Origin: Halomicronema hongdechloris C2206
GTDB taxonomy: Bacteria; Cyanobacteriota; Cyanobacteriia; Phormidesmidales; Phormidesmidaceae
NCBI RefSeq assembly: GCF_002075285.3
Contig: NZ_CP021983.2
Span: 2,130,001-2,162,000, forward strand
Reading direction: 5' to 3'
Length of the DNA stretch: 32,000 nucleotides
Part shown: positions 2,463 to 32,000 of the stretch, in pieces
Layout: each line of letters starts with the position of its first letter
Position numbering within the stretch: position 1 is the stretch's first letter
Notes under the pieces: model-generated
What the model saw: the letters and a program-made list of their open reading frames with translations, nothing else
What the model was told of the DNA's origin: nothing
Databases searched by the model: none
Program-made: the position numbers and the translations under genes

Positions 2463-3558
2463 ATGATTCAAGCGAATGACTTAGAGACTAACTTGGAGAC
2501 CAATTGCCGTTTTTGCTCGCTGGTCTCCAAAGCCAATGGCCAAGACCCCATCGGCTCTGCCGGTACCTATCACCACTGGCTGATCGTAGAGATCCCTCAA
2601 CCTTGGCCCACCACCATCTGGCAAGAGCATCCCATCGTGGCGCCAGTGCTACAAATGGTCAAGGCCTTGCGCCAGCAGGGGGTCTATGTGCGCCCATTGA
2701 TGATTGCCCCGGAGCGTGACTATTCTCACCCCGACTTCACCCGGGTTCTCTACTATCGCCGTCCCCAAGCATGTTTTACTGCCTTTGAAAAGCAAGAGTT
2801 TCTCCTTCCCCCCTCAGAGGTTGTTCCCCTGGCCACCGCCTTACTGCAACAGCCCGCCGCTCTCCCCCAGTTCGAGGCCTACCGCCAACCCACCCAGCAT
2901 CTCCGCGAACTCTTCGTCTGCACCCACGGCAACGTCGATGTCGCCTGCTCCCGCTTTGGCTATCCCATTTATCAGCAGTTGAAAAAAACCTATGCGGTCG
3001 AGTGGAAGCCTGAATCCCCCCCTCCCCCCCTCCCCATCGCCCCCACTCAAAACTCAAAACCCAAAACTCAAAACTTCCCCCACCCCCCTCCGCGTCTGGC
3101 GCTGCTCCCATTTCGGTGGCCATAACTTTGCCCCTACTCTCATCGACCTACCGACGGGACACTATTGGGGGCATCTAGAACCTGATGCTCTCGATGCCCT
3201 AGTCTATCGTCAAGGAGATGTCCAGCAACTGCGGCGCTTTTATCGCGGCTGGAGTGGCCTGCGGCGCTTTGAGCAGATGGTGGAGCGAGAGCTGTGGATG
3301 CAGCACGGCTGGGATTGGTTGAGCTATGGTAAAGTCGGCCAAACCCTGGCCATGGATACCCCCCAGGAGGATGAGTATGATGCCGACTGGGCCGAGGTGC
3401 GCATTGACTTTGAAGCCCCAGATGGTTATGAGGCTGGTGCCTATGCAGCCCGGGTGGAGGTGGCTGGCGAGGTGCTAACCCAGTGGCGATCGGGAGAAGA
3501 GCATCCTTTAGAGCCGGTGAAGCAATACCAAGTCACTCAGTTGCATCGTGTCGCCTAA
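2463..3558 (+). pseudogene. sucraseferredoxin-like (thioredoxin-like 2Fe-2S) family protein, frameshifted as assembled
   Basis: ORF 2463-3125 carries CTHGNVDVACSRFG. ORF 2992-3558, in a different frame, carries SHFGGHNFAPTLIDLP. These are the two halves of the Sucrase_ferredoxin signature. The frames switch inside the poly-C / heptamer tract at 3016-3090. Confidence 0.7.
3016..3090 (+). repeat. almost G-free low-complexity insert: two C7 runs plus (ACTCAAA)x4 heptamer array
   Basis: Sequence is CCCCCCCTCCCCCCCTCCCC...ACTCAAAACTCAAAACCCAAAACTCAAAAC...CCCCCACCCCCC. The heptamer array is at 3045-3072. Confidence 0.8.
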
Positions 3559-8150: not shown

Positions 8151-8223
8151 TGGAGAATAGGGGATTCGAACCCCTGACCTCTGCGGTGCGATCGCAGCGC
8201 TCTACCAACTGAGCTAATTCCCC
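8151..8223 (-). tRNA. tRNA-Ala (anticodon CGC)
   Basis: The reverse complement is GGGGAATTAGCTCAGTTGGTAGAGCGCTGCGATCGCACCGCAGAGGTCAGGGGTTCGAATCCCCTATTCTCCA. The cloverleaf folds by hand, with a G3:U70 Ala identity pair, U33, anticodon CGC and A37. CCA is not encoded. Confidence 0.92.
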
Positions 8224-9103: not shown

Positions 9104-9973
9104 TCTAGAGGGCAGGCGGCGTCAGGTCGCTGCTACTAGGGTATCGGCTATGGGCATCTCCTGGGGGGTAGGGGGGTGGCTTGAGCCCGTGGGTAACCTG
9201 GTTAATTAGCCATACCGTGTCACTGGTGATGTGGTCAAAACCCCCGCCGCCCCCAGCCAGGCGGCTACGGTGCCCTGGGCAAATTCCTGAATGTAGGGCT
9301 CTTCGAAGATCTCCATCAGCCAGGGCAGAGCTCGTAGGGTGTCTCGGGGTTGCCGTCTAGGATGGCTACCTCACCACTGGGGCGCAACAGCCGAAAGGCT
9401 TCTCGCAGGATGGTCTGGGCGACCTCAGTAGGGGTCTCATGGAAGAGCAGAGAGGCGGTGACTAGATCGAAGTGAGCCGCTGGAAAGGGGGTGTGGTTCG
9501 GCGTTGCCGTGGACCCAGTGAATGGCTAGATTGGCCTGACGGGCCTTGTCCTCGGCGACGACCAACATATGGGGCGACAGGTCCAGCCCGATCACCTCGG
9601 CAGCGGGAAAGGTTTGCTTCAGCAAGTGGGTGGTGGTGCCGGTGCCGCAGCCCAGATCTAGAATGCGGCGGGGCTGTCCCTGAATCTTGTCGATTAGGGC
9701 CTGGCGCACCCAGGTTTCATTGGGGGGCAGGACGTACTGGGTGATGGGATCGTAGGTGACGGCGGCATCGGCGCTGAGATAGCCCTGCTCAATGCCATGG
9801 AAGGCGGCCTTGCGATAATAGTCTGGATAGGTCAGCTTAGGGTTGGCAATGCGATCGCATTGTTGCTCCCAGTCAAACTGGTGTCGATAGGCCAGCAAGG
9901 CCTCCCGATCCAAGAGGTGATCGAACAGAGGCGCCAAAAATCGAGCGAATAACGTATCTTGACCGGTTGCCAT
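9104..9973 (-). pseudogene. class I SAM-dependent methyltransferase, at least 3 frameshifts as assembled
   Basis: ORF 9437-9973 carries ILDLGCGTGTTT. The continuation (AAHFDLVTASLLFHETPTEVAQTILREAFRLLRPSGEVAILDGNP, then LPWLMEIFEEPYIQEFAQGTVAAWLGAAG, then DHITSDTVWLINQVTHGL) is found in the other two frames. Breaks are at ~9487-9491, ~9329-9350 and ~9237-9245. The 3' end is uncertain. Confidence 0.7.
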
Positions 9974-10853: not shown

Positions 10854-11857
10854 GAGGTATCTGCCTTAGCGAGCGTCTCTACACAGGCCATGGACGGAGC
10901 CGGTCGGGATAGTCGCCGGGCCGCTTGCAGCTGCATGGCACTGTCGAAGGTCCCCGCTTCGACCATAGCAGCCGTAGGGACTGGGTGAGCAGCAGCTTGG
11001 TGGGCCTGGTTCAGGTCCACAGCCATGGCTGTCATGGCCAGGGTGGGCCGCTCCCGGCGTAAGGGCGCTGTCTCATGGGGGGCCTCTGCTAGGGGCTGCT
11101 CGATCTCAGGAGCTGGCTCAGCAGCCGAGGCCGCCAGTGGGTCACGGCTGGGAACATCACCATCACGCCAGGGGTGAGAGCGAGAAGGGCGTATGGGGGC
11201 CTCAGGGGCCGTCGCTGTTAGGGGAGAATTGGTCTCCGGATTGGTTTCTGGCGTTGTCGCTTCACTGGCAGGGGACGAGGAGGCGGTTAAGGGAGCTGTA
11301 CTGGGCGCGGCGGGGGGTGAGGCAGCTGTAGGTGTCTGAGCTGGAGCCGTGGCACTGGTAGCTGACCTGCTGGTCAGAGGCGCCGTTGGCCCACTTTCAG
11401 GGGAGGCAATGGTGGCGCCAGTGGGTTGGGACTGAGGGCGAGGAGTCGTGGTGGCAGGCTCTGGGGTAGGAGTAGGCCCTGGGGTGGCCGCAGAAGGCGT
11501 TGCGGAACTGGGAACCGATGATGCCGATGGACTGCCGGCTGCCGCTGCTAGAGGTGCCAGCATCACCGCCCGGCTGCGTCGTCCCGGAGATTGTGCCGGT
11601 GGAGTGCGCCCTGGCAGCGGTTGGTCGGCAATGGCGGAGCCACTGCGGGGAGTGGCGGGATTGCTTTCGGGAGCCGTAACGCTGGGGCTGATATCGGGGG
11701 GGTCAGCCGAGGTGGCAGTGTCTACCAAGGGATCATCAAAGCTGGCGGTCTCTAAATCAGGGGGCGTAAATGACCAGCCATTGTCGGTAGACTGGTTGCC
11801 AGAACACGCTGTCAGAGCAACCAAACTGCTACAGGAAGCGAGGGTCCAAATGCGCAT
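10679..11857 (-). CDS. Pro/Ala/Ser/Thr-rich low-complexity putative lipoprotein
   Basis: 392 aa with an N-terminal MRIWTLASCSSLVALTACSGNQ (signal plus lipobox LTAC), followed by ~300 aa of PAST-rich sequence. The 3' 175 nt overlap the crtISO-like remnant on the other strand, so the true C-terminus is uncertain. Confidence 0.45.
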   Translation of the reverse strand: MRIWTLASCSSLVALTACSGNQSTDNGWSFTPPDLETASFDDPLVDTATSADPPDISPSVTAPESNPATPRSGSAIADQPLPGRTPPAQSPGRRSRAVMLAPLAAAAGSPSASSVPSSATPSAATPGPTPTPEPATTTPRPQSQPTGATIASPESGPTAPLTSRSATSATAPAQTPTAASPPAAPSTAPLTASSSPASEATTPETNPETNSPLTATAPEAPIRPSRSHPWRDGDVPSRDPLAASAAEPAPEIEQPLAEAPHETAPLRRERPTLAMTAMAVDLNQAHQAAAHPVPTAAMVEAGTFDSAMQLQAARRLSRPAPSMACVETLAKADTSYSEDIEATRADTCSGGTRVLAQSMPEAATAGTPMPGKVLSPTRNSPATGVKQLGNTP

Positions 11858-12244: not shown

Positions 12245-13163
12245 ATGATGGACTTACGAGGGGAGTTGGCGGCCCTGGGGGCTGCTTTTTTATGGGCGTT
12301 GGCGACGGTCATGTTTGGCCAGTTGGGCAAACAGCTTGCTCCCCTGGTGCTAAATCTGGTCAAGGGATTATTGGCGATTAGCCTGATTGGTCTAACCCTT
12401 GCTGTGCAAGCGCTCTATCAGCCCCAGGACCCTTGGCAGATCAGGAGTGGGTTGGAGCAAGGGTCTGTGCTGCTGTTGCTAGGCAGTGGTGTGATTGGCA
12501 TTGGCCTAGGGGATACGGCCTATTTTACGGCGCTCAATTATCTGGGGGCCCGGCGGGTGCTGTTGCTAGAGTCCTTGGCGCCGGCCATGGCTGCCCTGAT
12601 GGCCTTAGGATTTTTGGGAGAATATCTGGCCCTGAGGGATTGGCTGGGCATTGTCTTAACGCTGTTGGGGGTGAGTTGGGTAGTTTCTGAGCGAGCTCCC
12701 GGTATCCCTGGGGAATCATTCCAACCCTGGCGGGGTATCTGCTATGGCTGTTTAGCAGCCGTTGGGCAGGCTGTCGGAGCAGTCATGTCACGGGCGGCTT
12801 TGGCAGACACGGCGGTCGATCCCCTGTGGAGTACGCTGTTGCGGCTGGGGGGTGGGTTGAGCATCATGGGAATATTGTTGCCTGAGGGGAGGGCAGTGGC
12901 GCTATCAACTGCGCCTCCTAGCCTCGGGTCGGCTGCTGGGGGTGTTGATGGTGGCGGCGTTTATAGGCACCTATCTGGCCCTGTGGTTGCAGCAGATGGC
13001 CCTGAAGTATGCTGCCACGGGAATTGCTCAAGCGCTGCTGGGCACGAGTCCACTATTTATTTTGCCGATCGTGGTCTTACTGGGCGAGCGCGTCAGTCTC
13101 CGAGCTATCTTGGGGGTGCTAGTGGCCCTGGGGGGTGTCTGGCTCCTGGTGGGCTATGACTAG
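12245..13163 (+). pseudogene. EamA/DMT family transporter, one frameshift as assembled
   Basis: ORF 12245-13159 reads as transmembrane protein up to ~12885. ORF 12942-13163 (extendable upstream in its own frame to QWRYQLRLLASGRLLGVLMVAAFIGTYLALW) gives the second EamA half, ending GGVWLLVGYD. The switch is at the G runs at ~12885-12895. Confidence 0.7.
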
Positions 13164-15191: not shown

Positions 15192-15425
15192 TTAGGTGTC
15201 GTATATCAAGCCCTCTGGGGCATCGGGATTGTCCTCTAAGTACTGATCGAAGCCAGTTTTGGCCGGGGTTTGATGCTGATGGGAGACCTCCGCTCGCATC
15301 TCCTCGACAGTATCCCACGCGACCGCACAGGCCTGAGAGTCAGCGCCTTGTTGATCACAGACCTGACGGGCATACTCTACGGCGTTTTCCAATTCCTGCT
15401 GGAACTTGGTGTCATCAACACTCAT
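15192..15425 (-). CDS. cp12: CP12 (Calvin-cycle GAPDH/PRK regulator), variant lacking the C-terminal Cys pair
   Basis: 77 aa from the ATG at 15425, with GGAGAG upstream: ...QVCDQQGADSQACAVAWDTVEEMRAEVSH...FDQYLEDNPDAPEGLIYDT. It has the AWD_VEE core and the YxxxNPxAxExxxYD tail. The longer track ORF (to 15647) is an artefactual extension. Confidence 0.85.
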   Translation of the reverse strand: MSVDDTKFQQELENAVEYARQVCDQQGADSQACAVAWDTVEEMRAEVSHQHQTPAKTGFDQYLEDNPDAPEGLIYDT

Positions 15426-15528
15426 GCTATGCTCTCCCGGACTAAACACCATCGTCATCGACGCTCCAAGGGGAGCTATTCCATCATAATGGTCTGGTCC
15501 GGCAACGGCAGCCCATGGCCCCACGGGC

Positions 15529-17772
15529 CTACTCTTTCTGCAGGACTTCGGCAAACTCCAAATCCTCTGAGGCCAGGACAAATATGGTGCCGGGTAATCC
15601 GGCAGTGCGCTGTTGCAGGGAGAGATAGTACTGGCTGAAGTGTTCATTGGGAGTGGCTAAGCCCAGAAATACTAAATCAGCCGTTTCAGAGGACTGCTTC
15701 AAAATGGTGTCAAAGGGCCGGCCCTCCGCCAGAATCACCCGGGGGGTAGCGCCAATACGTAGACCATCGACGAGCCGCTGCAGGTTAGTCTGGGCTGCCT
15801 TTGCTGCCGCTTGATTGGGCACCACCAGGTTGAGGCGGATCTCTACCCCACGCCAGGTAAGACTGGTGCGTAGCAGATAGGCCAAAATCAACATCAGTCC
15901 CCCATTGGCCTGGAGTCCGCCCCACCAGACATCAATGCGGCGATAGTGAGGAGGGCGACGGCGGCTTAGCTCATAGGTCTGGGGCTCGCCGCGAAAAATA
16001 ATCACATTGCGCTTGCCTGGTGACAGCGGCTAATCAGCTGGCAGAAGCGATCGCAACTCTGGGGATTTTCCGTATCCCCCAGCATCACCGTATTCGGCAT
16101 CAGGGGACCAATGCCGTAAGACTCCACCAGCTGTCCCATGCCGCCGAAGGGTTCTGCCGCCGTAATCAACCGCACAAACGCCTGGATCCCTCGCCGCTCC
16201 AGATACTCCTGTAGGGGTCGCCTCCATGCCCTCCTGCTGGGCGCCACTACGAGATCTAGGGGGCAACACACTCGACACCGTAAATAGGCCCCGATTGTGG
16301 GTCAGGGCGGCCGCCAATTCAATCAAATGCCAGCGCTTCGTCGGGGCCCCCGAGAAGACCAGCAAATGGGGGCGCCAGTTTTTGGCATCCAAAGCCCCCT
16401 CAATGCGGAATAAGGCCGTACGCACCAAACTCATCCACAATCCCTGGCGCACATCCCCCCAGGCGCTCTCCAGCTCCCGCCGCTCCAGCCATAGGTAAAT
16501 CAACAGCACGATCACCGCTGCCGCCACTGTGGCTACAGCATTGATCAAAAACATCACCGTCAGACACCCCGCTGCCCCCAGTAACGAGAGCGACCAGTGC
16601 ACCTTAAACGTCGGTCGAAAAGACGGACTCTGCAGAAACCCTTCCAAACCAGCTGCCACATTCAACACCATGTAGGTGGTCAAGAAAAACATGGTCAGCA
16701 CCGGCGCAATCAGGTTTAAATCGCCGATGGAGACAGCCACCAAGACAATGCCCAGGGTAAACAGGGTGCCCAGCCGCGGCTCATCTCCTTCGCGACTCCC
16801 ATGGCCCAACCACCGCAGTCGCCGCGGTAAGATACCGTCTCGAGCCAGGGCCTGTAATACCCGAGGTGCCCCCAAGATGCTACCAATAGCACTAGATAGA
16901 GTGGCCCCCCACACCCCCAGTAGAATGGCATCGCCCCACAGGGCAATGCGCCGCATCACCAAGGGGTCGGCTACCAGGGTGGTCGGGTCAGCCCGCAGGC
17001 TGAGAATGACGGGAATAATCATATAGATCACATAGCCGCTGCCGATGGCAGCCAGGGTGCCGATGGGGATGGCCTTGCTGGGTTTTTTCAAATCCCCCGA
17101 CATGTTGACCCCCGACATAATGCCCGTCACCGCTGGGAAGAACACCGCTAGCACCGTCCAAAATCCCACCGAGCCGGGAGGCTCTGGGGAGGGTAACTCC
17201 GTGGGCGTGATGCTATGGCCCATAGCCAGAGAAACCAAGGAAAGGACAATGGCGGCCATGATGAAATATTGAGCCTTAATGGCAATTTCGGCCGATTTCA
17301 GAGCCAACGCGGTCACCAGCACCGTCGTCATCAGGGCTACCAGGGTTTGATCGAGTCGGGGAAATACCCGCACCAGACTCTCGGCAAAGCCGATGGTGTA
17401 GAGAGCCACCGAGAGCCCCTGGGCAAAGTAGAGGGGAATGCCCACGGCGCCCCCGGTTTCAATGCCAAGGGAGCGGCTAATCATGTAATAGGCCCCGCCA
17501 GCCCGTACCACCTGGTCAGTGGCGATGGCCGAGATGGATAGCCCGGTGAGAAAGGTAATCCCGGTGCAGATGGTCACCACCAATAAGGTCTGCACCAGCC
17601 CCACATGACCCAGTACCCAGCCGAAGCGTAGGTACATGATCACCCCGAGAATCGTCAGAATTGACGGGGTGAATACTCCGCCAAAACTAGTCAGCTTCTT
17701 GGCTCCTGCCTCTGTATCGGGCGTTGCTGCGCCTTGCTCCATACGTCGCCGTGGCATGGTAGAGCGATCCAT
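15529..17772 (-). pseudogene. SLC12-like cation:chloride cotransporter / amino acid permease family, at least 2 frameshifts as assembled
   Basis: ORF 16030-17772 gives the transmembrane domain (KLTSFGGVFTPSILTILGVIMYLRFGWVLG). The cytosolic C-terminal domain continues in ORF 16002-16271 (LQEYLERRGIQAFVRLITA...PNTVMLG) and ORF 15529-16005 (NVIIFRGEP...). Breaks are at ~16215-16270 and ~16010-16025. Confidence 0.75.
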
Positions 17773-18700
17773 AGGTTGACCCTGTCATCATGCCGGAAGA
17801 TCCCGGCTGCGGCTAGGCTTAGCCGGTACAGTCTGCCTGATATTTACCGTTCATCTCAGGTTTCAGAGCTTCCCCGGATTAGCTGTTTCAGCAATAAATC
17901 GACGGATCCGCTGTGACTCCGTTGTTGGTCTTGGTCAGTAGTCCGATCAGACCGGTTGGGATGTCGACGACCTCAGTGCAGCCGTTTCGCTCAATGGCGA
18001 TACCCCTGCAACGGCTGCTTCAGGACCAGTTCGACCGTTTAGGAGCTGCCTATACTTCAACGTCGAGGATGTCGACCGCCTATCCCCAGGCTCGGATTGT
18101 CGCTGAGCAGGGACAGCTGGCTCTAGAGCTTTATCAGCCCTTTACTAGGCTGGCCCAGATGATGATGGGGTATGCGCCCTTAACCTTCGCGGTGTAGTGT
18201 GCGATCGCATGATGCCAGGAATACCTGAATGGTATCGGCTCTAACCTTCTGAGTAGATGCGATCGCTAATCGCTGTAGAGCCAGTTCGGGAAGCCAATCG
18301 CTGATTTGGCATGTCCTAACCTGGCTGACTACAGCTATAAGCAGTAACGATCTCAGGTTTGCCAGGCCCCTTGGAGGGTCAATCGGGAACCCGTTCATGG
18401 TCAAGCCAAACCAGTACATGTTTAAACAAGGCCAACTTTGTTTAAAGCCGGACCCATTCATGGTCAGAAGTAACGATTTCCCGTCTTTGAGCTCCCCTAC
18501 AAGGTGCCCTACGGCTGATTTCGCCAGCGTATCAGCATTGGGGGGCTAGGGGGGGTCTTCAGTCGGTAGAGTCTTTTCGAGAAAACACCTTAGATGCGGC
18601 GGGCATCACTCTGGAAGTGACTGGTAAAGGCAATGCACAATCTCTGCGTCTAGATTATCATCGCGCTACAATCGTCTTACTGAGTAAGAAATTTATTGTT

Positions 18701-18961
18701 ATGCCTACTGTTACCGTTTCCGACAAAGGTCAGGTTGTCATTCCGGCAGCCATTCGCAAACAGCTGGGAATTACCCCTGGTAGCCAACTCACCTTTACGT
18801 TGGAAGGCAACACCATTCGGGTCGAAGTCAAACGTCATAAGCCGACCACCACAATCGACGAAGGCTTCGGCATGTTGGTTTGTCCCCCCGGACCTGCCAG
18901 ACGATTACAAGACTTTGACATCGCCCAGGCTATGCGAGAAGACAATCATGAACGCCCTTGA
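18701..18961 (+). CDS. vapB: AbrB/MazE/SpoVT-family antitoxin (VapB-like)
   Basis: MPTVTVSDKGQVVIPAAIRKQLGITPGSQLTFTLEGNTIRVE is a SpoVT-AbrB fold signature. It overlaps the PIN gene by 14 nt. Confidence 0.8.
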   Translation: MPTVTVSDKGQVVIPAAIRKQLGITPGSQLTFTLEGNTIRVEVKRHKPTTTIDEGFGMLVCPPGPARRLQDFDIAQAMREDNHERP

Positions 18962-19379
18962 TACCAACATTCTGGCTCGGTTCTATGTTGATGACCCCAA
19001 CGACCCAGAAGCCCAATGGCAACGCCCTCTGACTCGCAAAGTTTTGGCCGAATCCGCCAGTGTGTTTGTGCCGCTCTCAGTCATTCTGGAACTGGAATGG
19101 GTGCTACGTGCCTTTTATGGCTTCGGTTGCCAAGACTTTGTTCAAGTGATTCGTCATTTGCTGGGGTTACCCCACGTCACGATCGAGCATTGGGAACGGG
19201 TCGCTGACGCGCTCGAATGGCACCTACAGGGTTTAGATTGGGCCGATGCTCTACATTTGGCCGCCAGTCGCCATTGCGAAAATCTGATGAGTTTTGACGA
19301 TAAACGCTTCGCCCGCCGAGCCCAAAGATTAAAATTAAAGCCATCTGTATTAGTTCCAGGGGAATCAGGAGGGGAGTGA
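18948..19379 (+). CDS. vapC: PIN-domain ribonuclease toxin (VapC-like)
   Basis: Starts MNALDTNILARFYV (first acidic residue) and carries ILELEWVL, WADALHLAAS and SFDDKRF. The ATG at 18948 is in the same frame as track ORF 18696-19379. Confidence 0.8.
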   Translation: MNALDTNILARFYVDDPNDPEAQWQRPLTRKVLAESASVFVPLSVILELEWVLRAFYGFGCQDFVQVIRHLLGLPHVTIEHWERVADALEWHLQGLDWADALHLAASRHCENLMSFDDKRFARRAQRLKLKPSVLVPGESGGE

Positions 19380-24170: not shown

Positions 24171-24614
24171 TTATACCGATAGCCACCCTGGCAAACGAAG
24201 CCAGCGGCTCACCGCATTATATAGGTGATCCTGAACCCTGGGGGTGAGATCCGGATGTTTTGCTAATTCCCAGTGTTGCAGGAGTTGCCGTCCCAGGGGG
24301 GTGAGGCGAAAGCTATCGGTGATGCCTTGGCCATCGACTTCTCGCCGCAGTAGCCCTACGGTAATCAACCACAGGAGTTCTCCCTCGACTCCCAATTCCG
24401 AGAGAGGACGGCGGGTGTAGCCATTGTGAATGCCACGGCTATCGACCATGGCCTGTAGGGCAATACTGTGGTGGCGCAGGTCGACCAGCAGTTTGAGCCG
24501 CAAGGGAGAACAGCGAAAAGCGCGCTCAGCCCGCCGCAACGCCCGGGAGGAATATGCGATCGCAGGGGTAGCCTTGGGAGTGTCGTCAGAATCAGTAGCC
24601 TGCATAGGGCTCAC
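24171..24614 (-). CDS. hypothetical protein (147 aa)
   Basis: Clean ORF upstream of cobQ on the same strand, with Arg/Leu-rich helical composition. Family not recognised. Confidence 0.5.
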   Translation of the reverse strand: MSPMQATDSDDTPKATPAIAYSSRALRRAERAFRCSPLRLKLLVDLRHHSIALQAMVDSRGIHNGYTRRPLSELGVEGELLWLITVGLLRREVDGQGITDSFRLTPLGRQLLQHWELAKHPDLTPRVQDHLYNAVSRWLRLPGWLSV

Positions 24615-24771
24615 AAAAACCAGCTCAGGTTATACCGAGTCTAGAGCGGGGCCAGTTGGTGTTTTATTGTGCCAACGTCACGGCCTAGATCCAGACAGGG
24701 AAGATATCCTCTTCGATTTTAGTCTGACCTCAGGTTTTCAACAGATGCAAGCTCACGGTGTCAGATGTTCC

Positions 24772-24813
24772 GTAACCGTTGATACCCCACCTAGGCCATG
24801 ACCTTGCTAGAAA
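24772..24813 (+). promoter_or_regulatory. candidate NtcA-type promoter (GTA-N8-TAC plus -10 box)
   Basis: GTAACCGTTGATAC at 24772-24785, then 22 nt, then TAGAAA(T) at 24808-24814. This is canonical class II NtcA geometry, ~70 nt upstream of the riboswitch aptamer. Confidence 0.4.
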
Positions 24814-24885
24814 TAGTGGCAAGTATTGCCTGCCCATGGGCCATACGGAGCGACGCCAACTAAATACTCGGAAGTGAATGGGTTT

Positions 24886-25048
24886 CTAGGGTTCCGACTC
24901 TCCAGCTTCAGCTCTAGAGGTGTCAGCTGTCAGGGTGTCTGGTCCGAGAGAAACCGCCAGAGAGCAGCGTATCGTTGCTGAAATAGACATTCTCCAGCAA
25001 GATGCTGGCTGCTCATCTGGTACACGGCGGGATAAAAGCCCGGGAGGG
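24886..25048 (+). promoter_or_regulatory. guanidine-I riboswitch aptamer (ykkC-yxkD class)
   Basis: All three conserved blocks are present in order: CTAGGGTTCCG (24886-24896), GGTCCGAGAG (24941-24950) and ACACGGCGGGATAAAAGCCCGGGAG (25022-25046). P1a and P2 are longer than usual; for example the CCAGCA-aga-TGCTGG hairpin lies inside P2. Confidence 0.88.
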
Positions 25049-25089
25049 AGTACGGAGGCCACTTCGTCTACCTTCCGGGTCTTTAATTT
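25039..25089 (+). terminator. riboswitch expression platform: terminator stem that competes with the aptamer 3' strand
   Basis: CCCGGGAGG (25039-25047) pairs with CCTTCCGGG (25071-25079), giving 9 bp including one G-U. TCTTTAATTT follows. The 5' arm is part of the conserved GCCCGGGAG aptamer block, so this is ON-switch logic. Confidence 0.6.
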
Positions 25090-25132
25090 GGCGGCCCTTT
25101 TATCCCCTGACTGTAGAATTCGCCGTCTAACC

Positions 25133-26314
25133 ATGAGTGACCCCCCTATTTTTGAACCTCCCGATAGCTCAACAGAAGCCCAACGCTCCCTGTCGCAGGA
25201 AGCCCAGCTGCCCTTAACCGGCTGGCAACAGGAAGTCGACCGGGGCCTAGAATATGGCCTGGAGGCTGCCGCCAGCATCCAAGACCGTAGCATCTCCACC
25301 TTCTCCCGGGGGGAACTGCCCCATTTCGCCGGCATCAATACCTTCCTTAAGGCTCCCTATCTAGAAGATGTACGCCAAGTGGGCAACTACGATGCCGCCA
25401 TCGTCGGCGTGCCCCACGACTCCGGCACCACTTACCGCCCCGGCACTCGCTTTGGCCCCCAGGGGATTCGCCGCATTTCCGCCCTCTATACCCCTTACAA
25501 CTTCGAACTAGGTGTCGATCTGCGGGAGCAAATCACCCTCTGCGACGTGGGCGATATTTTCACCATTCCGGCCAACAACGAGAAGTCCTTCGATCAGATT
25601 TCCAAGGGCATCGCCCACATCTTCAGTGCCGGTGTCTTCCCCATCGTTTTGGGGGGCGATCACTCCATCGGCTTTCCCACCGTGCGCGGCATCTGTCGCC
25701 ACCTGGGAGACAAAAAGGTCGGCATCATCCACTTCGACCGTCATGTGGATACCCAAGAAACCGACTTGGATGAGCGCATGCACACCTGTCCTTGGTTCCA
25801 CGCCACCAATATGGCCAATGCCCCGGCTAAAAATCTGGTGCAACTGGGCATCGGCGGTTGGCAGGTGCCCCGCCAGGGCGTGAAGGTGTGCCGGGAACGA
25901 GCCACCAATATCCTCACCGTGACCGATATCACAGAGATGGGGTTGGACAACGCCGCCACCTTCGCCCTAGAGCATGCCCTCGACGGCACCGACTGTGTCT
26001 GGATTAGCTTCGACATCGACTGCATCGACGCTGGTTTTGTCCCCGGCACGGGCTGGCCAGAGCCTGGCGGACTGCTACCCCGGGAAGCCTTATATCTACT
26101 GAAGAAAATCGTCCAGAATGCCCCCGTCTGTGGCCTGGAAGTGGTGGAGGTGTCACCCCCCTACGACATCAGCGACATCACGGCCCTGATGGCGACTCGG
26201 GTCATCTGCGACACCATGGCTCATTTAGTCCTCTCAGGCCAGCTGCCCCGGACAGCGACTCCGGCCTATATCCAGGCCGACGCCAACCTCAATGTTGACC
26301 AGCAGTGGCGGTAA
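25133..26314 (+). CDS. gdmH: arginase/ureohydrolase-family protein, GdmH-like Ni-dependent guanidine hydrolase (often annotated agmatinase SpeB2)
   Basis: 393 aa from the ATG at 25133. Contains LGGDHSIGFP, HFDRHVDT, SFDIDCIDAGFVPGTGWPEPGG and GLEVVEVSPPYD. The context of a guanidine-I riboswitch upstream and hypA/hypB-like genes downstream mirrors Synechocystis sll1077-1079 as I recall. The track start at 24920 would read through the riboswitch. Confidence 0.8.
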   Translation: MSDPPIFEPPDSSTEAQRSLSQEAQLPLTGWQQEVDRGLEYGLEAAASIQDRSISTFSRGELPHFAGINTFLKAPYLEDVRQVGNYDAAIVGVPHDSGTTYRPGTRFGPQGIRRISALYTPYNFELGVDLREQITLCDVGDIFTIPANNEKSFDQISKGIAHIFSAGVFPIVLGGDHSIGFPTVRGICRHLGDKKVGIIHFDRHVDTQETDLDERMHTCPWFHATNMANAPAKNLVQLGIGGWQVPRQGVKVCRERATNILTVTDITEMGLDNAATFALEHALDGTDCVWISFDIDCIDAGFVPGTGWPEPGGLLPREALYLLKKIVQNAPVCGLEVVEVSPPYDISDITALMATRVICDTMAHLVLSGQLPRTATPAYIQADANLNVDQQWR

Positions 26315-26317
26315 CCC

Positions 26318-26689
26318 ATGCACGAAACGGACATGACTAAGGCCCTGATTCTGACCGTGCGTGACTGGTGGCAATCCCAACCGCAGCGCCAGGCCATCGC
26401 CAAAATTCATCTGAGCGTGGGCCAGTTTACCTGTGTGGAACCAGCCAGTCTGCAGTTTGCCTTCCAGGTGCAAACCCACGGCACCTGGTTGGCCGAGGCC
26501 GAGTTAGTGATTCAAGAGACGCCCCTGATCGCCTTCTGCCATCCCTGTCAGAGCGAGTACACTCCGGAAATCGGTCACCACTACGCCTGCCCCATCTGTC
26601 ACGCCCCCATGGAGGATATTCGCTCCGGTCGAGAGCTTAAAATCGACCGGGTGGAATACGCCTCGCCTACCCCTACTGCCACCCCGTGA
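26318..26689 (+). CDS. hypA: HypA-family nickel metallochaperone (GhaA-like accessory protein)
   Basis: Has the MHE N-terminal Ni-binding motif and the Zn site CHPC...CPIC. It starts 3 nt after the hydrolase stop. Confidence 0.85.
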   Translation: MHETDMTKALILTVRDWWQSQPQRQAIAKIHLSVGQFTCVEPASLQFAFQVQTHGTWLAEAELVIQETPLIAFCHPCQSEYTPEIGHHYACPICHAPMEDIRSGRELKIDRVEYASPTPTATP

Positions 26690-26695
26690 TCTGCC

Positions 26696-27386
26696 ATGCA
26701 TCAACCCCTTGACGACGCCCTCGGCATTAACCTGCTCCACGCCAATCAAGCTGGTGCCGACCATAATCGGGCCCATTTGGACCAATGGGGCATGACCTGC
26801 CTCAATCTGATGAGCGGCCCCGGTGCCGGTAAAACTGCCTTGCTAGAGCAAACCCTGGCCCAGCTCAGCCCTGAGCTCTCTATAGCCGTGGTTGAAGGAG
26901 ACATGACCACCGAACTCGATGCCGATCGGCTGCGGCAGTACGGCGTCCCCGTGATTGCCATCAATACCGGCCGGGCCTGCCACTTAGATGCCCGCATGGT
27001 GGCAGGAGGGCTGCATCAATTGGCTGAGCTCCATAGCCCCAATGACATTGACCTGTTGGTGGTGGAGAACGTGGGCAATCTCGTCTGTCCGGCTGAGTTT
27101 GAGGTGGGGGAACACGCCAAGGTAGCGCTGCTCAGCGTCACCGAAGGGGCTGATAAACCCCTGAAATACCCGGTCATGTTTCGGGAAGCCGATGTGCTGC
27201 TGATTACCAAGATTGATTTGCCCCCTATCTAGATGTGGATCTGGCTGAGATGGAGGCCAATGTGCGGCAGGTGAATCCTGGGTTGCCGTCATGCCTCTGT
27301 CGGCCAAGACCGGGCAAGGGTTAGCCCCCTGGTTGATGTGGCTGCGGCAGATAGTCAAGGCCCGGGCTCAGACCGTTGCCGTTTAA
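26696..27386 (+). pseudogene. hypB: HypB-family Ni-binding GTPase (GhaB-like), 2 frameshifts near the C-terminus as assembled
   Basis: Contains [24 protein letters not shown] and ITKIDL. After 27221 the expected [22 protein letters not shown] and then VMPLSAKTGQGLAPWLMWLRQIV are found in the other two frames. Breaks are at C5 (27221-27225) and ~27285-27290, with the stop at 27384-27386. Confidence 0.8.
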
Positions 27387-27419
27387 CACCCAGCCGTTAG
27401 CGCAAAGCAAGGAGGAGCA

Positions 27420-28469
27420 ATGCAACGACGCACCCTATTACCCCTACTCATGGCCTTCATCGGCGCCCTGTTGATTAGCGTCAGCTGCGCCCAATCAGGC
27501 CCGCAAACGACGGAGACGCCCACGGAGGAGACGCCCGCCGCCGAGACCGCTGCCCCCATCAAGATGGGCTACAGCAGTTGGGCCGGTTGGTGGCCCTGGG
27601 CCATTGCCGAGCAGGAGGGCCTATTCGAGAAGCATGGGGCCAATGTGGAGCTGATCTGGTTTGACGGCTATTTAGAGTCGATGCAGGCCCTGGCTTCTGG
27701 GCAATTGGATGCCAATTGCCAGACCCTAAATGACACCATTTCCTTTGCCGCCGATGCCGTCAACGGGGAAGTGGCAGTGCTCGTGAATGACAACTCCGCC
27801 GGGAACGACAAGGTGATCGTGGCTGCGGAGATTAACACCATCGAGGATCTCAGCGGCAAGACCGTTGCCCTGGAGGAAGGGGTTGTCGGTGACTTTCTGC
27901 TCACCCTGGCCCTGGAAGATGCTGGCATGAGTCGGGAAGATGTCACCATCAAAAACCTGGAGACTGGTGCCGCTGCCACTGCCTTCGCCGCCGGGCAGAC
28001 CGATGCCTTCGCCGGTTGGGTACCTTTTTGGGAAACGGCCCTGACCCGAGCAGGCAGTAAAGAGCTGTTGAGTTCGGCGGCATACCCCGGTGCTATCCCG
28101 GACCTGTTGGTGACTAGCCAGACCCTGATTGATGAGCAACCAGAGCAGGTGCAGGCCCTGGTGAATACTTGGTTTGATGTCCTGGCTTTCATGGCAGACA
28201 ACCCAGACCAGGCCAACGCCATCATGGCTAAGCGGGCCAATGTGGAGGACGACCAGTTTCAGAAGTACCTAGACGGCACCCGTTTCTTCACCCTAGAGGA
28301 GAACTTGGAGGCCTTCAGTGCCGGCGGCGAGGAGATGAAATATATGCCCTATGCCGCCGAACGCATGGCCGAGTTCATGGTGGAGGTCGGGTTTATCCCT
28401 GAGACTCCTGAGCTTGAGCCCATTCTGGATGATCAGTTCCTGCAGACCTATGCCAAGGCTCAGGCGTGA
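27420..28469 (+). CDS. ABC transporter substrate-binding lipoprotein, NitT/TauT (NMT1-like) family; probable guanidine-binding component
   Basis: 349 aa with GGAGG upstream of the ATG. It has a signal peptide with a Cys (LLISVSCAQSG) and the IKMGYSSWAGWWPW pattern typical of NitT/TauT substrate-binding proteins. Confidence 0.8.
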   Translation: MQRRTLLPLLMAFIGALLISVSCAQSGPQTTETPTEETPAAETAAPIKMGYSSWAGWWPWAIAEQEGLFEKHGANVELIWFDGYLESMQALASGQLDANCQTLNDTISFAADAVNGEVAVLVNDNSAGNDKVIVAAEINTIEDLSGKTVALEEGVVGDFLLTLALEDAGMSREDVTIKNLETGAAATAFAAGQTDAFAGWVPFWETALTRAGSKELLSSAAYPGAIPDLLVTSQTLIDEQPEQVQALVNTWFDVLAFMADNPDQANAIMAKRANVEDDQFQKYLDGTRFFTLEENLEAFSAGGEEMKYMPYAAERMAEFMVEVGFIPETPELEPILDDQFLQTYAKAQA

Positions 28470-28645
28470 AACGGGCATAGAGTTGTCCCGAGGGTGAGGA
28501 CTAGGAGCTAACGCACCGTCAATCCCCCTGGCTCTCGAGCTTGCCTGCCACTCCCCAGCCTATGCAACCTCGCCCGGTTGTCCCGTGATGTTATTTACCT
28601 AACCTCCCTTGGCAAATATTCCCCGTCGTCTCCCAGACCTTTGCA

Positions 28646-29491
28646 ATGTCTTCTGTTGCCCGGAATGCTCCGCCATCCATGACCACTACCGATCGCAGCC
28701 TGCAGCCCACCGTCTTCTGGCGTTTAGCCGAAGGTATTCCCCCAGGACTGAGCTGGTTGCTGATGGCCCTGTCGGTGCTGGTCCCGCTGTTGGCCTGGTT
28801 TTTGTTGTCTAACGCCGGGGTGATCAGTCCCCGCTTTTTACCCACGCCTCAGATGGTGGTAACGGCCCTGGGACGACTCTGGCAGCAGGGCTATCTGGGC
28901 CAGGATACCTTCGCCAGCTTCTTTCGGGTAATGGTGGGATTTTTGCTGGCCGGGCTGGTGGCGATCCCGGTAGGCATTGCCATGGGGGCTTTTGCCAGTA
29001 TTCGAGCCCTATTTGAGCCGATTATCGGCATCGTTCGCTACATGCCAGCCCCGGCGTTTATTCCGCTGCTGATTATCTATTTGGGGTTGGGGGAAACTCC
29101 GAAGGTGGCGCTGATTTTCATCGGTACGGTGTTCTACAACATTCTGATGATTATGGATGCGGTCAAGTTCGTGCCCAAGGACCTGATCGAGAGTACCTAT
29201 ACCCTAGGGGGCAACCGCCGTCAGGTGCTGTTTCAGGTGATTGTGCCCTATGTGGTGCCGAATATGTTGGATACCTTCCGCATCAATGTCGCCACTTCGT
29301 GGAACCTAGTGGTGGTGGCGGAGCTGGTGGCGGCTGAGGTGGGCCTGGGCAAGCGCATTGCCATTGCCCAGAAGTTTTTCCAGACCGATGAGATCTTTGC
29401 CTGCTTACTGGTGTTGGGGGTGATCGGGTTTTTACTGGACCTGTCTCTGCGTCTGCTGCTGCAAACCACCTGTAGATGGGCCATTGATTGA
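28646..29491 (+). CDS. ABC transporter permease (NitT/TauT family)
   Basis: 281 aa with multiple transmembrane segments and an EAA-like loop (ESTYTLGGNRRQVLFQVIVPYVVP). Confidence 0.8.
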   Translation: MSSVARNAPPSMTTTDRSLQPTVFWRLAEGIPPGLSWLLMALSVLVPLLAWFLLSNAGVISPRFLPTPQMVVTALGRLWQQGYLGQDTFASFFRVMVGFLLAGLVAIPVGIAMGAFASIRALFEPIIGIVRYMPAPAFIPLLIIYLGLGETPKVALIFIGTVFYNILMIMDAVKFVPKDLIESTYTLGGNRRQVLFQVIVPYVVPNMLDTFRINVATSWNLVVVAELVAAEVGLGKRIAIAQKFFQTDEIFACLLVLGVIGFLLDLSLRLLLQTTCRWAID

Positions 29492-29494
29492 CAT

Positions 29495-30286
29495 ATGCAC
29501 TTAGACATTGCCCAGGTTCACAAGCAATTTGCCACCCGCGGTGGGCCGTTGGTGGCCTTGCAGGATATCACGATGCAGGTGGAGACGGGGGAGTTTGTCT
29601 GTGCCGTGGGGGCCTCGGGCTCGGGTAAATCTACCCTGTTGCGGCTGATTGCTGGGCTGGAGCGGCCCACCAGCGGCACCATCTCTGTCGATGGACGGGG
29701 TGTGACAGGGCCAGGAGCTGACCGAGGCATGGTGTTTCAGAGCTATACTCTCTACCCCTGGATGACGGTACAGAACAATGTGGAGTTTGGCCTCAAGTTG
29801 CGAGGAATCTCGGCCCGGGAGCGGCGACAACAGGCCTCCTACTATCTGGAGATGGTGGGGCTGGCCCCTTTTGCCCGGGCACTGCCTAAGGAACTCTCGG
29901 GGGGCATGAAGCAGCGGGTTGCGATCGCACGGGCCCTAGCCAACCAGCCCAAGATTCTACTGATGGATGAGCCCTTCGGGGCCCTGGACGTGCAGACCAA
30001 GGAGACCATGCAGCAGTTTTTGCTAGAGCTGTGGCAGCGTCTAGGCATCAGCATTTTGATGATTACCCACGATGTGGCCGAGGCGGTGTTCCTGAGCCAG
30101 CGCATCTATGTGTTATCGGCCAGCCCTGGCACCATCGCCCGAGAGTTGAGCATCGACCTGGGCCAACGGCGGGACTACGGCATCCGTCGCAGCTCCCAGT
30201 TTCATCACTACTGCGAAGACATCATGGACCTGCTGCGGCAATCCCAACGGGCCACCTTTGGAGTGCCCCAGTCGATAGGACCATGA
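29495..30286 (+). CDS. ABC transporter ATP-binding protein (NitT/TauT family)
   Basis: Walker A GASGSGKST, signature LSGGMKQRVAIARAL and Walker B ILLMDEPFGALD. Confidence 0.88.
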   Translation: MHLDIAQVHKQFATRGGPLVALQDITMQVETGEFVCAVGASGSGKSTLLRLIAGLERPTSGTISVDGRGVTGPGADRGMVFQSYTLYPWMTVQNNVEFGLKLRGISARERRQQASYYLEMVGLAPFARALPKELSGGMKQRVAIARALANQPKILLMDEPFGALDVQTKETMQQFLLELWQRLGISILMITHDVAEAVFLSQRIYVLSASPGTIARELSIDLGQRRDYGIRRSSQFHHYCEDIMDLLRQSQRATFGVPQSIGP

Positions 30287-31367
30287 CGGGTGCCGGTTGC
30301 CCCTGTCCCGATACTTTTTTACTGCCGGCCCATCACTACACCGATGCCGCCTGGATGCAGCCGGAGTGCGATCGCATCTTCCGCCGCAGCTGGCAGTACC
30401 TGCCCCAGGCCGCCCTGTTACAACCGCCCCACACCTGCCTGGGCCTTGAGGTGGCCGGTGCGCCCCTGGTGCTCACCCGTGATGGTCAGGGCCACCTACG
30501 TGCCTTCTACAACGTCTGTCCCCACCGGGCCGCCCTGCTCTGCCCCACCTCAGGTCCCCACACCCAGAAGCACCTGGTATGCCCCTACCATGGCTGGACC
30601 TACGACCTAACAGGCCAGCTGGTGGGCCTTCCCAGGGGCGATCGCTTCTCCCCAGAAGTCCAGCCGCAAGATTATCCCCTCACCCCAGTGCGGCTGGAGC
30701 CGTGGCAGGGATTCTGGTTCCTCTGCCTCGATTTCCAAGCCCCACCCCTAGTGGAAGTGCTACAGCCTATCCCCCAGTGGATCCGTCAGCACCGTCGTGC
30801 CGGCAGCCAACCCCTGGTGCACAAGACCTACAGCGTGGCCTGCAACTGGAAGGTCTATCACGACAATACCCTCTGTGACTATCACGTGGCCATCGCCCAT
30901 CGCACCACCCTGCATAAGCTGCAAGGGCCGGTGCACCACTACCGCCACCATTTCCATCACTACGTCAACTGCCTCTATACCCCGACTCCTGCGGCTTGGC
31001 GAGACCGGCATCCCCGCCTTGAGGGCCTGGATGATGAGGCCGGCCACGGCTTCTATACCTTTGGCATCTTTCCCAACCTGCACTTGCTGGCCATGCCCGA
31101 TGGCGTGCTGGCCTGGATTCAGATTACGCCTCTGGCCGTCGATCGCTGCCAAGTCAGCCTCGATATCCACGGCATCCCTGGCCTCAGTCCCGCGGCAGAG
31201 ACCCTATTAGCCGACTTTGAAGCCTTCATGGCCGAGGATATGGCCATCACCCGCGGCGGTGCAGCGTGGTTACAGCAGTGGCTGCCACCCGTCCCGGTCC
31301 CGTGAATCAGCTGGAAGCCCGGATCGTGCATCAGCAACGGCTGATCTGGCAAGCATTGGCAGGGTAG
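30283..31367 (+). pseudogene. Rieske [2Fe-2S] non-heme iron oxygenase alpha subunit, choline-monooxygenase-like clade; 2 frameshifts near the C-terminus as assembled
   Basis: The ATG at 30283 overlaps the TGA of the ATPase gene (ATGA). Rieske motif: CPHRAALLC...CPYHGWTY. Mononuclear iron motif: NWKVYHDNTLCDYHVAIAH. The C-terminal AAVQRGYSSG and NQLEARIVHQQRLIWQALAG are found in the other frames, with breaks at ~31248-31256 and ~31285-31302 and the stop at 31365-31367. Confidence 0.75.
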
Positions 31368-31373
31368 CCGGTT

Positions 31374-31406
31374 TTCTGCATTGGGCGCGGCAACCGCGCC
31401 CCTACC
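31374..31406 (+). repeat. REP-like palindromic element (GGCGCGG-N3-CCGCGCC hairpin), copy 2; possible operon terminator
   Basis: TTCTGCATTGGGCGCGGCAACCGCGCCCCTACC matches the reverse complement of 3660-3692 at 31 of 33 positions. It begins 7 nt after the corrected Rieske stop. Confidence 0.6.
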
Positions 31407-31500
31407 CTATTCCCTATTCCGTTCTCCGCCCTCCCTTCGACTGCGTTGCTCCTACGGAGCCGCTTCGCGAACAGGGCAAGCCGTTCTCCGTTTTCCTTTT

Positions 31501-31594
31501 CCCCATCACCCCATCCACCTATCCACTCGTTCACTCGTCACTCGTCACTCGTCACGGGAAGCCGCTACCGCGTCTACACCCCATCACCCCATCA
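31501..31594 (+). repeat. short tandem repeats in a polypyrimidine-rich spacer: (CCCCATCA)x2, (CACTCGT)x4, (CCCCATCA)x2
   Basis: CCCCATCACCCCATCC at 31501-31516. CACTCGT at 31524-31530 and then three perfect tandem copies at 31532-31552. CCCCATCACCCCATCA at ~31578-31593. In addition, CCCTATT x2 at ~31404-31417 and CCGTTCTCCG occurs twice (31419, 31481). Confidence 0.8.
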
Positions 31595-31655
31595 CTCATC
31601 CACCCCCTCCCCGATTCGGCACAATAAAGACAGCCTTGCTGCCATTTCCCAGCCC

Positions 31656-32000
31656 TATGTCCCAACCTGAGTCTTCTACGTCTAACAGCATTGCCCTCTG
31701 GTGGGATACCCTGAGACCGCTGTCGCAATTGCTTGCGATCGCATTGGCTGCACCCCTAATTTTGCTGAATGCCTGGGCCTTTTCCCAGATCTTCGCCTAC
31801 TTCCGCTCCCTCTTCATTGCTGTGGTTATTGCAGCCCTGCTGGCCTTCTTGCTCAACTACCCCATTAGCTGGCTACAGCAACGGGGACTGGGGCGTGGGG
31901 CGGCGGCCGTCGTAGTGTTTCTGGTGGCGTTGGTGGGCTTTTTGTTGCTAGGCATTACCGTACTGCCCCTGGTGATCAGCCAAGCCCAGCAACTGGTGGC
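31656..32000 (+). CDS. AI-2E family transporter (PerM/UPF0118), N-terminal 115 aa; continues beyond the right edge
   Basis: My own translation from the ATG at 31656 gives MSQPESSTSNSIALWWDTLRPLSQLLAIALAAPLILLNAWAFSQIFAYFRSLFIAVVIAALLAFLLNYPISWLQQRG..., typical of the AI-2E family N-terminus. The frame is open to the window end. Confidence 0.7.

Follow-up and report, generated by a model that had tools for sequence, protein, structure and literature searches.

What is a Rieske oxygenase gene doing at the end of an operon for guanidine assimilation? Guanidine riboswitches date from 2017 and the guanidine hydrolase GdmH from 2021–22, while the guanidine importer GimABC and the methylguanidine enzymes MgdH/MgdL both date from 2025. 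The locus that raises the question lies in a 32 kb stretch of the genome of the cyanobacterium Halomicronema hongdechloris C2206 (NZ_CP021983.2, positions 2,130,001–2,162,000), hereafter the window, in which positions are counted from the first letter. On its plus strand a Guanidine-I riboswitch is followed by gdmH, hypA, hypB, gimABC and, last, the gene for a Rieske non-heme iron oxygenase alpha-subunit. We find that this gene is the genuine last cistron of the guanidine-riboswitch-led operon, that its gimC–Rieske junction recurs across cyanobacteria, and that the encoded protein belongs to a clade with an active-site signature of its own. A plausible but unproven role, which we favour tentatively and at less than even confidence, is that of a ferredoxin-driven N-demethylase for methylated guanidines, most likely methylguanidine.

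The operon opens with the Guanidine-I (ykkC) aptamer in its 5′ leader (24875–25048; RF00442, 75.2 bits against a gathering score of 63, E = 7.6e-12, full model 1–107). Next come gdmH, an ortholog of the arginase-family Ni-dependent guanidine hydrolase (25133–26314; PF00491, 1.7e-76) that is 79–87% identical to gdmH of other riboswitch-led clusters, then hypA/ghaA for a Ni metallochaperone (26318–26689; PF01155, TIGR00100) and hypB/ghaB for a GTPase (26696–27386; recognised by NCBIfam and by alignment). The ATP-binding cassette (ABC) importer for guanidine is encoded by gimA, whose substrate-binding protein of the NMT1/SsuA family (27420–28469) carries the W-x-G-W-x-P-W motif and shares 64–74% identity with its counterparts in other gdmH clusters, by the permease gene gimB (28646–29491; PF00528) and by the ATPase gene gimC (29495–30286). 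These genes match the GdmH, GhaA/GhaB and GimABC set characterised for guanidine assimilation in Synechocystis, where the Kd of GimA for guanidine is 97 nM (PMC12704784). The Rieske gene follows at 30283–31367, its ATG (30283–30285) overlapping the TGA of gimC (30284–30286) as ATGA, just as the preliminary description of this DNA had stated. Most intercistronic gaps measure 3–6 nucleotides (nt), the largest being the 176 nt between gimA and gimB, and a simple scan for sigma-70-like promoters found none on the plus strand from 24400 to 32000 and hence none before the Rieske gene. The layout is thus that of a riboswitch regulon, with the aptamer upstream on the same strand and adjoining cistrons reaching as far as the Rieske gene; the overlap with gimC, the short gaps and the lack of a promoter-like site on that strand together argue for membership of the operon. 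Membership of the operon, as first described, therefore holds for the window; riboswitch control of the Rieske gene is not universal among orthologs.

The ends of the transcription unit are less distinct. A tentative NtcA-like motif, GTA-N8-TAC, lies at 24772–24785 (+), about 90 nt 5′ of the riboswitch, a position consistent with the NtcA control of gdmH and gimA in Synechocystis (PMC12704784); the motif occurs four times in the window against about two expected by chance, a weak excess that is not statistically significant. Just 3′ of the repaired Rieske stop (see below) is a GC-rich hairpin with an 8-bp stem, a CAA loop and no U-run (31383–31401, +), which is a possible operon end only: its minimum free energy of −25.8 kcal/mol has a z-score of −1.8, which is not significant, and the terminator scan did not call it.

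To which Rieske enzymes is the product related? Pfam recognises Rieske (PF00355, 1.2e-17) and Ring_hydroxyl_A (PF00848, 2e-14) domains in the open reading frame (ORF). The [2Fe-2S] ligands C79 (30517–30519), H81, C100 (30580–30582) and H103 form a CXH...CXXH motif that is invariant in 37 homologs, and the iron ligands H201 (30883–30885), H206 (30898–30900) and D319 (31237–31239), equivalent to H208, H213 and D323 of CntA, are invariant in 135 of 135 homologs. The motifs picked out by eye in the preliminary description, CPH (C79, H81), CPYHGW (C100, H103) and NWKVYHDNTLCDYHVAIAH, are all there. A profile of 18 orthologs searched against the PDB has CntA as its top match over the full length (8.7e-49, residues 18–342), with Stc2 next, ahead of the aromatic dioxygenases. 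The AlphaFold2 (AF2) model (pLDDT 85.9, pTM 0.85) is likewise closest to CntA in Foldseek (TM 0.76/0.72) and then to Stc2. GbcA (NF058607) is the top NCBIfam match, at 103 bits against an equivalog cutoff of 670 and with residues 11–214 alone aligned. In a neighbour-joining (NJ) tree the protein falls within the main cyanobacterial clade, which is sister to a picocyanobacterial clade. The initial assignment to a group resembling choline monooxygenase (CMO) is thus right at the level of the group V Rieske monooxygenases, with CntA, Stc2 and GbcA as the top sequence and fold matches. We conclude that the window protein is, by its sequence, the alpha-only catalytic subunit of a Rieske non-heme-iron monooxygenase related to group V CntA, CMO, GbcA and Stc2, a group of quaternary-amine and N-demethylating enzymes (PMC7948474).

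With CntA (PDB 6Y8J, group Va) the window protein shares the alpha-only architecture of about 370 amino acids (aa), the CXH...CXXH motif and the 2-His-1-Asp iron site; however, identity is only about 24%, no CntB-type reductase gene is nearby, and carnitine catabolism as the context of CntA is replaced here by guanidine uptake and hydrolysis. With the group Vb N-demethylases GbcA/BmoA and Stc2 it shares the lack of an aromatic residue at the CntA Y203 position, and their reaction, oxidative N-demethylation releasing formaldehyde, is of the type proposed here (PMC7948474). The GbcA NCBIfam and Stc2 PDB alignments both reach only about the N-terminal 210 residues, GbcA and Stc2 bind the carboxylate of their substrate at the iron while the window protein has an acidic pocket, and no GbcB-like reductase gene is near it. 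The preliminary description had noted that the window holds no reductase or ferredoxin partner, and indeed none is found in any other sizeable ORF; FNR-like or Fer2 reductases are absent both from the window and from the Pfam gene tables of 12 ortholog loci.

The pocket, read here from alignment to CntA only, sets the cyanobacterial proteins apart. The signature consists of T196, C198 and D199 in the window protein, within the clade motif HDNTL[C/D]DYH. The cation-pi Tyr203 of CntA is replaced by Thr196, which is invariant in both cyanobacterial clades, whereas 106 of 114 other homologs have Y or F; the window protein thereby lacks the aromatic residue of subgroup Va. The inter-subunit bridging position occupied by E205 in CntA, three residues ahead of the first iron ligand His, is essential in that enzyme. 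Its counterpart (= D205 of NDO) is Cys198 in 13 of 13 main-clade sequences, so that the bridging carboxylate is missing, and a cysteine at this position is unusual for the Rieske family. Cys206 of CntA becomes an Asp199 that is invariant and confined to the two cyanobacterial clades, and Cys209 becomes Val202; the cysteine pair by the iron site of CntA (C206/C209; PMC10952381) is accordingly not kept. At the E205/C206 positions the main clade has Cys-Asp (codons of C198-D199-Y200-H201, 30874–30885), the picocyanobacterial clade Asp-Asp. Thr196 and Asp199 were not found in about 114 homologs from other phyla, most of which have the CMO-like VDNYLDGYH. Three pocket residues of CntA, Y225, F258 and F319, are kept as Y220, F257 and F315; its polar carnitine contacts N270 and Y295 are both Leu in the window protein, and most main-clade members have Asp or Glu at its Y315. 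The invariance of T196 and D199, the gain of carboxylates and the retained aromatic residues indicate, at the level of sequence, that the clade has a pocket of its own, predicted to be smaller and more acidic and still aromatic. GdmH and GimA bind guanidinium with aromatic residues plus carboxylates (PMC12704784).

How far does the association with guanidine genes extend? Whole-collection genome and metagenome scans were swamped by the generic CPYH[AG]W motif and yielded for the most part other phyla's homologs at about 30% identity, with uninformative neighbours (trigger factor, ClpP, ClpX, Lon), and the survey was therefore made by 12 exact-protein look-ups. It covers 14 main-clade loci with enough flanking sequence (49–58% identity to the window protein) and, for the picocyanobacterial clade (29–41% identity), 10 contigs with informative upstream sequence, four of them long. 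In the main clade an NMT1/SsuA-type ABC transporter lies within 7 kb in 12 of the 14 loci, and the Rieske gene stands directly after an ATPase gene in half of them (7/14); gdmH-hypAB is present in 4/14, the guanidine carboxylase pathway in 2/14 and a Guanidine-I riboswitch in 6/14. In the picocyanobacterial clade gimC is directly upstream of the Rieske gene in all 10 contigs, and all four long contigs have gdmH-hypAB, three of them with the riboswitch.

The arrangements vary on this theme. The window and loci L161, L169 and L171 have gdmH-hypA-(GS-like)-hypB-gimABC-Rieske, where GS-like denotes a glutamine synthetase-like gene discussed below. Tildeniella (L001) has riboswitch, GS-like gene, gimABC and Rieske gene without gdmH, at a site syntenic with the window (same cobQ flank), and L165 has gimABC-Rieske. 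In Gloeomargarita (L167) gimABC and an allophanate hydrolase gene are divergent from the Rieske gene, the riboswitch, cgdAB and guanidine carboxylase; the L162 Rieske gene sits beside a riboswitch-led guanidine carboxylase cluster. The riboswitch-led layout of the window recurs in L001, L169, L171, L083, L085 and L087, making seven operons in all. No riboswitch was matched in L161, L163–L166, L168 or L003; the one Prochlorococcus locus that includes upstream sequence has none before gdmH even with relaxed thresholds. The importer is thus the tightest and most widespread partner of the Rieske gene, and the riboswitch accompanies it in only about half of the loci. The preliminary description had named an absence of conserved linkage as one outcome that would refute it; the linkage to guanidine genes is strongly conserved in orthologs across cyanobacteria. 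Since it involves two non-homologous systems, GdmH and guanidine carboxylase, the role of the Rieske protein appears tied to guanidine rather than to one particular enzyme.

Several other elements lie around these loci. An alpha/beta-hydrolase gene adjoins the Rieske gene in several cyanobacteria (L161, 11119–12141; L162, 11141–12223, minus strand; L172, 11126–12019); the L161 and L162 hydrolases are MetX-like (PRK07581, closest to homoserine O-acetyltransferases), and that of L172 is assigned by Pfam only. A hydrolase is also paired with a distant Rieske homolog in a metagenome-assembled genome (MAG) of Thermoleophilaceae (L023, 8406–9389; GS-like, MetX-like, Rieske) and in an alphaproteobacterial MAG (L066, 4780–5775). 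Glutamine-II riboswitch matches occur a few kb from picocyanobacterial clusters (L003, 16253–16315; L057, 9190–9252; L004, 7436–7498; L087, 814–875), and a match to NsiR1, a nitrogen-stress small RNA, lies just downstream of the L161 cluster (12311–12372, minus strand); together they place the loci in nitrogen-regulated neighbourhoods. Outside the cyanobacteria, distant Rieske homologs are occasionally found near arginase-family genes, in a Dehalococcoidia MAG (L052, 4767–11053) and in two contigs from soil metagenomes (L091, 5713–6660; L092, 2448–3440), and in an Opitutus MAG (L080, 382–11292) one follows an SsuA-type ABC transporter and has GS-like and DUF1989 genes downstream of it.

Was any of this known before? 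Full-text literature searches found no characterised Rieske enzyme of guanidine metabolism, in agreement with the preliminary description, and the gene goes unmentioned in both the cyanobacterial guanidine paper and the review of 2025. Only its presence beside the guanidine cluster has been noted: Doré et al. (2023) recorded CK_00002251, putatively a Rieske Fe-sulfur protein, downstream of the speB2/gdmH cluster in marine Synechococcus/Cyanobium, and suggested that its need for iron might explain the absence of the cluster from low-iron waters, proposing no reaction (PMC10119275). CK_00002251 shares with the window gene the position directly after the ABC ATPase of a riboswitch-led gdmH-hypAB-ABC cluster, and from this position we infer that it is the picocyanobacterial Rieske protein of our survey. 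The corresponding loci L003, L083, L085 and L087 belong to the sister clade, whose proteins carry Asp-Asp in place of Cys-Asp ahead of the first iron-binding His. In the proteome published for H. hongdechloris, the 'Rieske' entries found, XM38_003000 and XM38_003690, are paralogs from different contexts.

Can the window gene, as sequenced, encode a working enzyme? The interval 30283–31367 measures 1085 nt, which is not divisible by 3, and the gene given with these limits in the preliminary description is not one open frame; it exists only once two single-base insertions are removed. The sequenced ORF stops at TGA 31303–31305 and its 340 aa are identical to the deposited protein P0001, whereas homologs have 360–385 aa. 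The C-terminal 40 residues, kept in all homologs with the invariant motif ED....VQ.GY.SG....G....LE.RI.HQQ, are here spread over three successive frames: ...EDMAITR comes from frame 1, AVQRGYSSG from frame 2 and ATRPGPVNQLEARIVHQQRLIWQALAG*, which ends at 31367, from frame 3. An ortholog aligned to the window DNA runs in frame 1 to 31251, in frame 2 over 31259–31288 and in frame 3 over 31275–31346. This implies two 1-nt insertions, near 31252–31258 and 31283–31290, and their removal restores a protein of 360 aa ending at 31367. In the same operon hypB is broken by two 1-nt deletions, near 27220–27226 and 27282–27321, orthologous HypB aligning in frames 2, 1 and 3 successively.

We consider these breaks most likely to be errors of the assembly rather than signs of inactivation. 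At least four unrelated genes of the window are broken in the same manner: a Suc_Fer-like gene (2463–3558; profile positions 2–127 and 130–191 in two frames), a truncated methyltransferase gene (9437–9973), an EamA transporter gene that has lost its second domain (12245–13159) and a split cation-chloride cotransporter gene (15529–17772). This brings the count to at least six genes per 32 kb, or roughly an indel every 4 kb. The assembly drew on 17x 454, 14x early PacBio (RS) and 36-bp Solexa reads, which are indel-prone chemistries (PMC6416890). The shifted Rieske frames still encode perfectly conserved residues, without stops or substitutions, and confidence in the AF2 model is low exactly at the out-of-frame tail, residues 331–340. 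That the breaks are real, and the operon decaying in this strain, would agree with the loss of the conserved C-terminal helix in the ORF ending at 31305, with the two breaks in hypB and with the deposited annotation of 340 aa; set against the damage to unrelated genes, the sequencing chemistries and the intact conservation in the shifted frames, a true pseudogene has only a small chance. Programmed frameshifting was considered and rejected, for it would need two +1 shifts 30 nt apart in the Rieske gene, hypB has two −1 shifts, and unrelated genes are broken too.

What reaction could such an enzyme add to guanidine assimilation? We infer the substrate, the electron donor, the formation of a trimer and the physiological role as follows. 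Reduced ferredoxin, a donor suggested by the lack of a reductase gene in the loci, would pass electrons to the [2Fe-2S] cluster, from which they would cross the subunit interface of an alpha3 trimer to the mononuclear iron. The iron would activate O2 and hydroxylate the N-methyl group (or another N-alkyl alpha-carbon) of a small, positively charged guanidine brought in by GimABC, methylguanidine being the likeliest substrate. The hemiaminal N-(hydroxymethyl)guanidine would break down to guanidine and formaldehyde, and GdmH would then hydrolyse guanidine to urea and ammonium. A physiological precedent for this logic, which the preliminary description had also proposed, is provided in another enzyme family by MgdH/MgdL (Sinn et al. 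2025). In Vreelandella boliviensis they belong to a riboswitch-led guanidine carboxylase operon and convert methylguanidine to guanidine and formaldehyde via a stable hemiaminal, MgdH being a 2-oxoglutarate/Fe(II) dioxygenase and MgdL a required lyase (PMC12508155). In both cases the accessory oxygenase would be encoded within an operon headed by a Guanidine-I riboswitch, alongside an ABC importer and a pathway of guanidine degradation. MgdH is, however, unrelated in fold and cofactor and has no homology to the Rieske protein, and MgdH/MgdL are associated with guanidine carboxylase in halophilic Proteobacteria; the analogy is functional only.

The broader claim, of an enzyme with guanidine or a guanidine-type compound as its substrate, is one we are somewhat inclined to accept. 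A bolder generalisation is that the whole HDNTL[C/D]DYH clade comprises ferredoxin-driven monooxygenases of methylguanidine (N-alkylguanidine), a third non-homologous entry to guanidine assimilation after GdmH/guanidine carboxylase and MgdH/MgdL; this we regard as rather doubtful at present.

A number of observations weigh against methylguanidine demethylation. Methylguanidine is not a ligand of the Guanidine-I class of riboswitches (PMC12508155), so that induction would have to depend on the product, and for the tight pocket of GimA binding has been shown with guanidine alone. In vitro the hemiaminal persists for over 1 h, and no MgdL-like lyase was identified, although no search aimed at MgdL was made. 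The main clade has Cys at the bridging position, and the window's own Rieske gene, in its sequenced form, has a broken frame. The Rieske genes of L167 and L162 are outside the control of the riboswitch there: the L167 riboswitch (11155–11262) lies downstream of the gene and upstream of cgdAB/guanidine carboxylase, leaving the Rieske gene adjacent to the unit and outside it. Five main-clade orthologs lie beside a second NMT1-type transporter (L163, 6564–10001; L166, 13095–17685; L168, 7425–15449; L164, 11218–14339; L162, 14384–17634), here called type B, whose binding protein is about 27% identical to GimA and has lost the W-x-G-W-x-P-W aromatic motif. Three type-B loci contain an isochorismatase/BiuH-like gene, and L168 additionally has creatininase, SDR and RidA genes. 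L170, with P450 and EamA neighbours, and L172, with a Pot-type transporter, have no NMT1-type transporter. The type-B module may itself be catabolic for a different nitrogen compound, possibly a creatinine-like one.

These last loci lend some weight to the view that the Rieske enzyme acts on a small nitrogen compound of an unrelated kind (for example a quaternary amine, an osmolyte or a substance of the creatinine or pyrimidine type) and is merely co-located with guanidine genes, the link being circumstantial. Riboswitch control is missing in many loci, and the nearest characterised enzymes act on quaternary amines. We nevertheless give this view a modest chance only: the gimC–Rieske pair is retained all the way from Prochlorococcus to the filamentous forms, streamlined genomes included, both guanidine-degrading systems show the linkage, the group Va quaternary-amine aromatic residue is lost, and the orthologs linked to type-B transporters form a sub-branch of their own in the NJ tree, apart from the window protein. 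Might the substrate instead be free guanidine, N-hydroxylated for example to hydroxyguanidine, or else aminoguanidine or hydroxyguanidine, in detoxification or alternative assimilation? Such a role would suit a gene that follows a transporter with nanomolar affinity for guanidine (PMC12704784) and is linked to the riboswitch in seven operons, and the small acidic and aromatic pocket signature would fit guanidinium as well. Yet in their described reactions the closest characterised relatives, CntA, CMO, GbcA and Stc2, hydroxylate a carbon next to the nitrogen, not the nitrogen (PMC7948474), guanidine is already handled by GdmH or guanidine carboxylase in the same clusters, and hydroxyguanidine would waste nitrogen, which leaves this idea with slim prospects.

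The main rival centres on the GS-like gene, which recurs in the same clusters (L001, 5447–6808; L161, 4299–5660; L171, 4780–6215; L083, 5971–7317; L085, 5906–7261; L162, 12268–13629; L168, 8506–9876) and is closest to the solved glutamate-methylamine ligase 9QUR (1.4e-128), matching also GmaS 7CQL and passing TIGR03105. Its recurrence suggests methylamine or N-methyl chemistry, or a GdmH-independent route. An amine could be gamma-glutamylated by the GmaS-like ligase and the gamma-glutamyl amide then oxidised by the Rieske enzyme, for instance gamma-glutamylmethylamide to glutamine and formaldehyde, much as GS-like ligases feed Rieske oxygenases in the aniline and naphthylamine systems; the pairing is documented for 1-naphthylamine (PMC11335346). 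GS-like and Rieske genes co-occur in L001, L161, L162, L168, L171, L082, L083 and L085 and in the non-cyanobacterial L023 and L080, the former being directly upstream of the latter in L168. In Tildeniella the GS-like gene takes the place of gdmH-hypAB directly behind the riboswitch, which there controls it together with gimABC and the Rieske gene. Against this, the window, L169, L165, L087 and L003 have the Rieske gene with no GS-like gene adjacent, the documented systems use two-subunit aromatic dioxygenases and not CntA-like enzymes, and the acidic signature of the pocket suits a cation more than a neutral amide; we judge the gamma-glutamyl route unlikely. It has oxidative N-demethylation in common with the demethylation of methylguanidine that we favour. 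As a bolder variant hinted at by the Tildeniella locus, the Rieske enzyme and the GmaS-like ligase may form a GdmH-independent route.

Elsewhere in the window are a VapBC-type toxin-antitoxin pair (18617–19379), with overlapping ORFs for a MazE/AbrB-like antitoxin and a PIN-domain toxin, a tRNA gene (8151–8223, minus strand) and a CP12 gene (15192–15647, minus strand).

A conserved oxygenase attached to the guanidine importer, in abundant marine picocyanobacteria among others, is an obvious missing piece of guanidine metabolism. If guanidine is released from methylated guanidines, a wider pool of organic nitrogen would be open to primary producers, and phytoplankton of oceans and fresh waters would have a real source of nitrogen in methylated guanidines, at a cost in iron. 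This could explain the absence of the cluster from the low-iron ocean regions pointed out by Doré et al. For Rieske enzymology, it would mean a new class of substrate and an unusual active site, with a cysteine at the bridging position and an extra aspartate.

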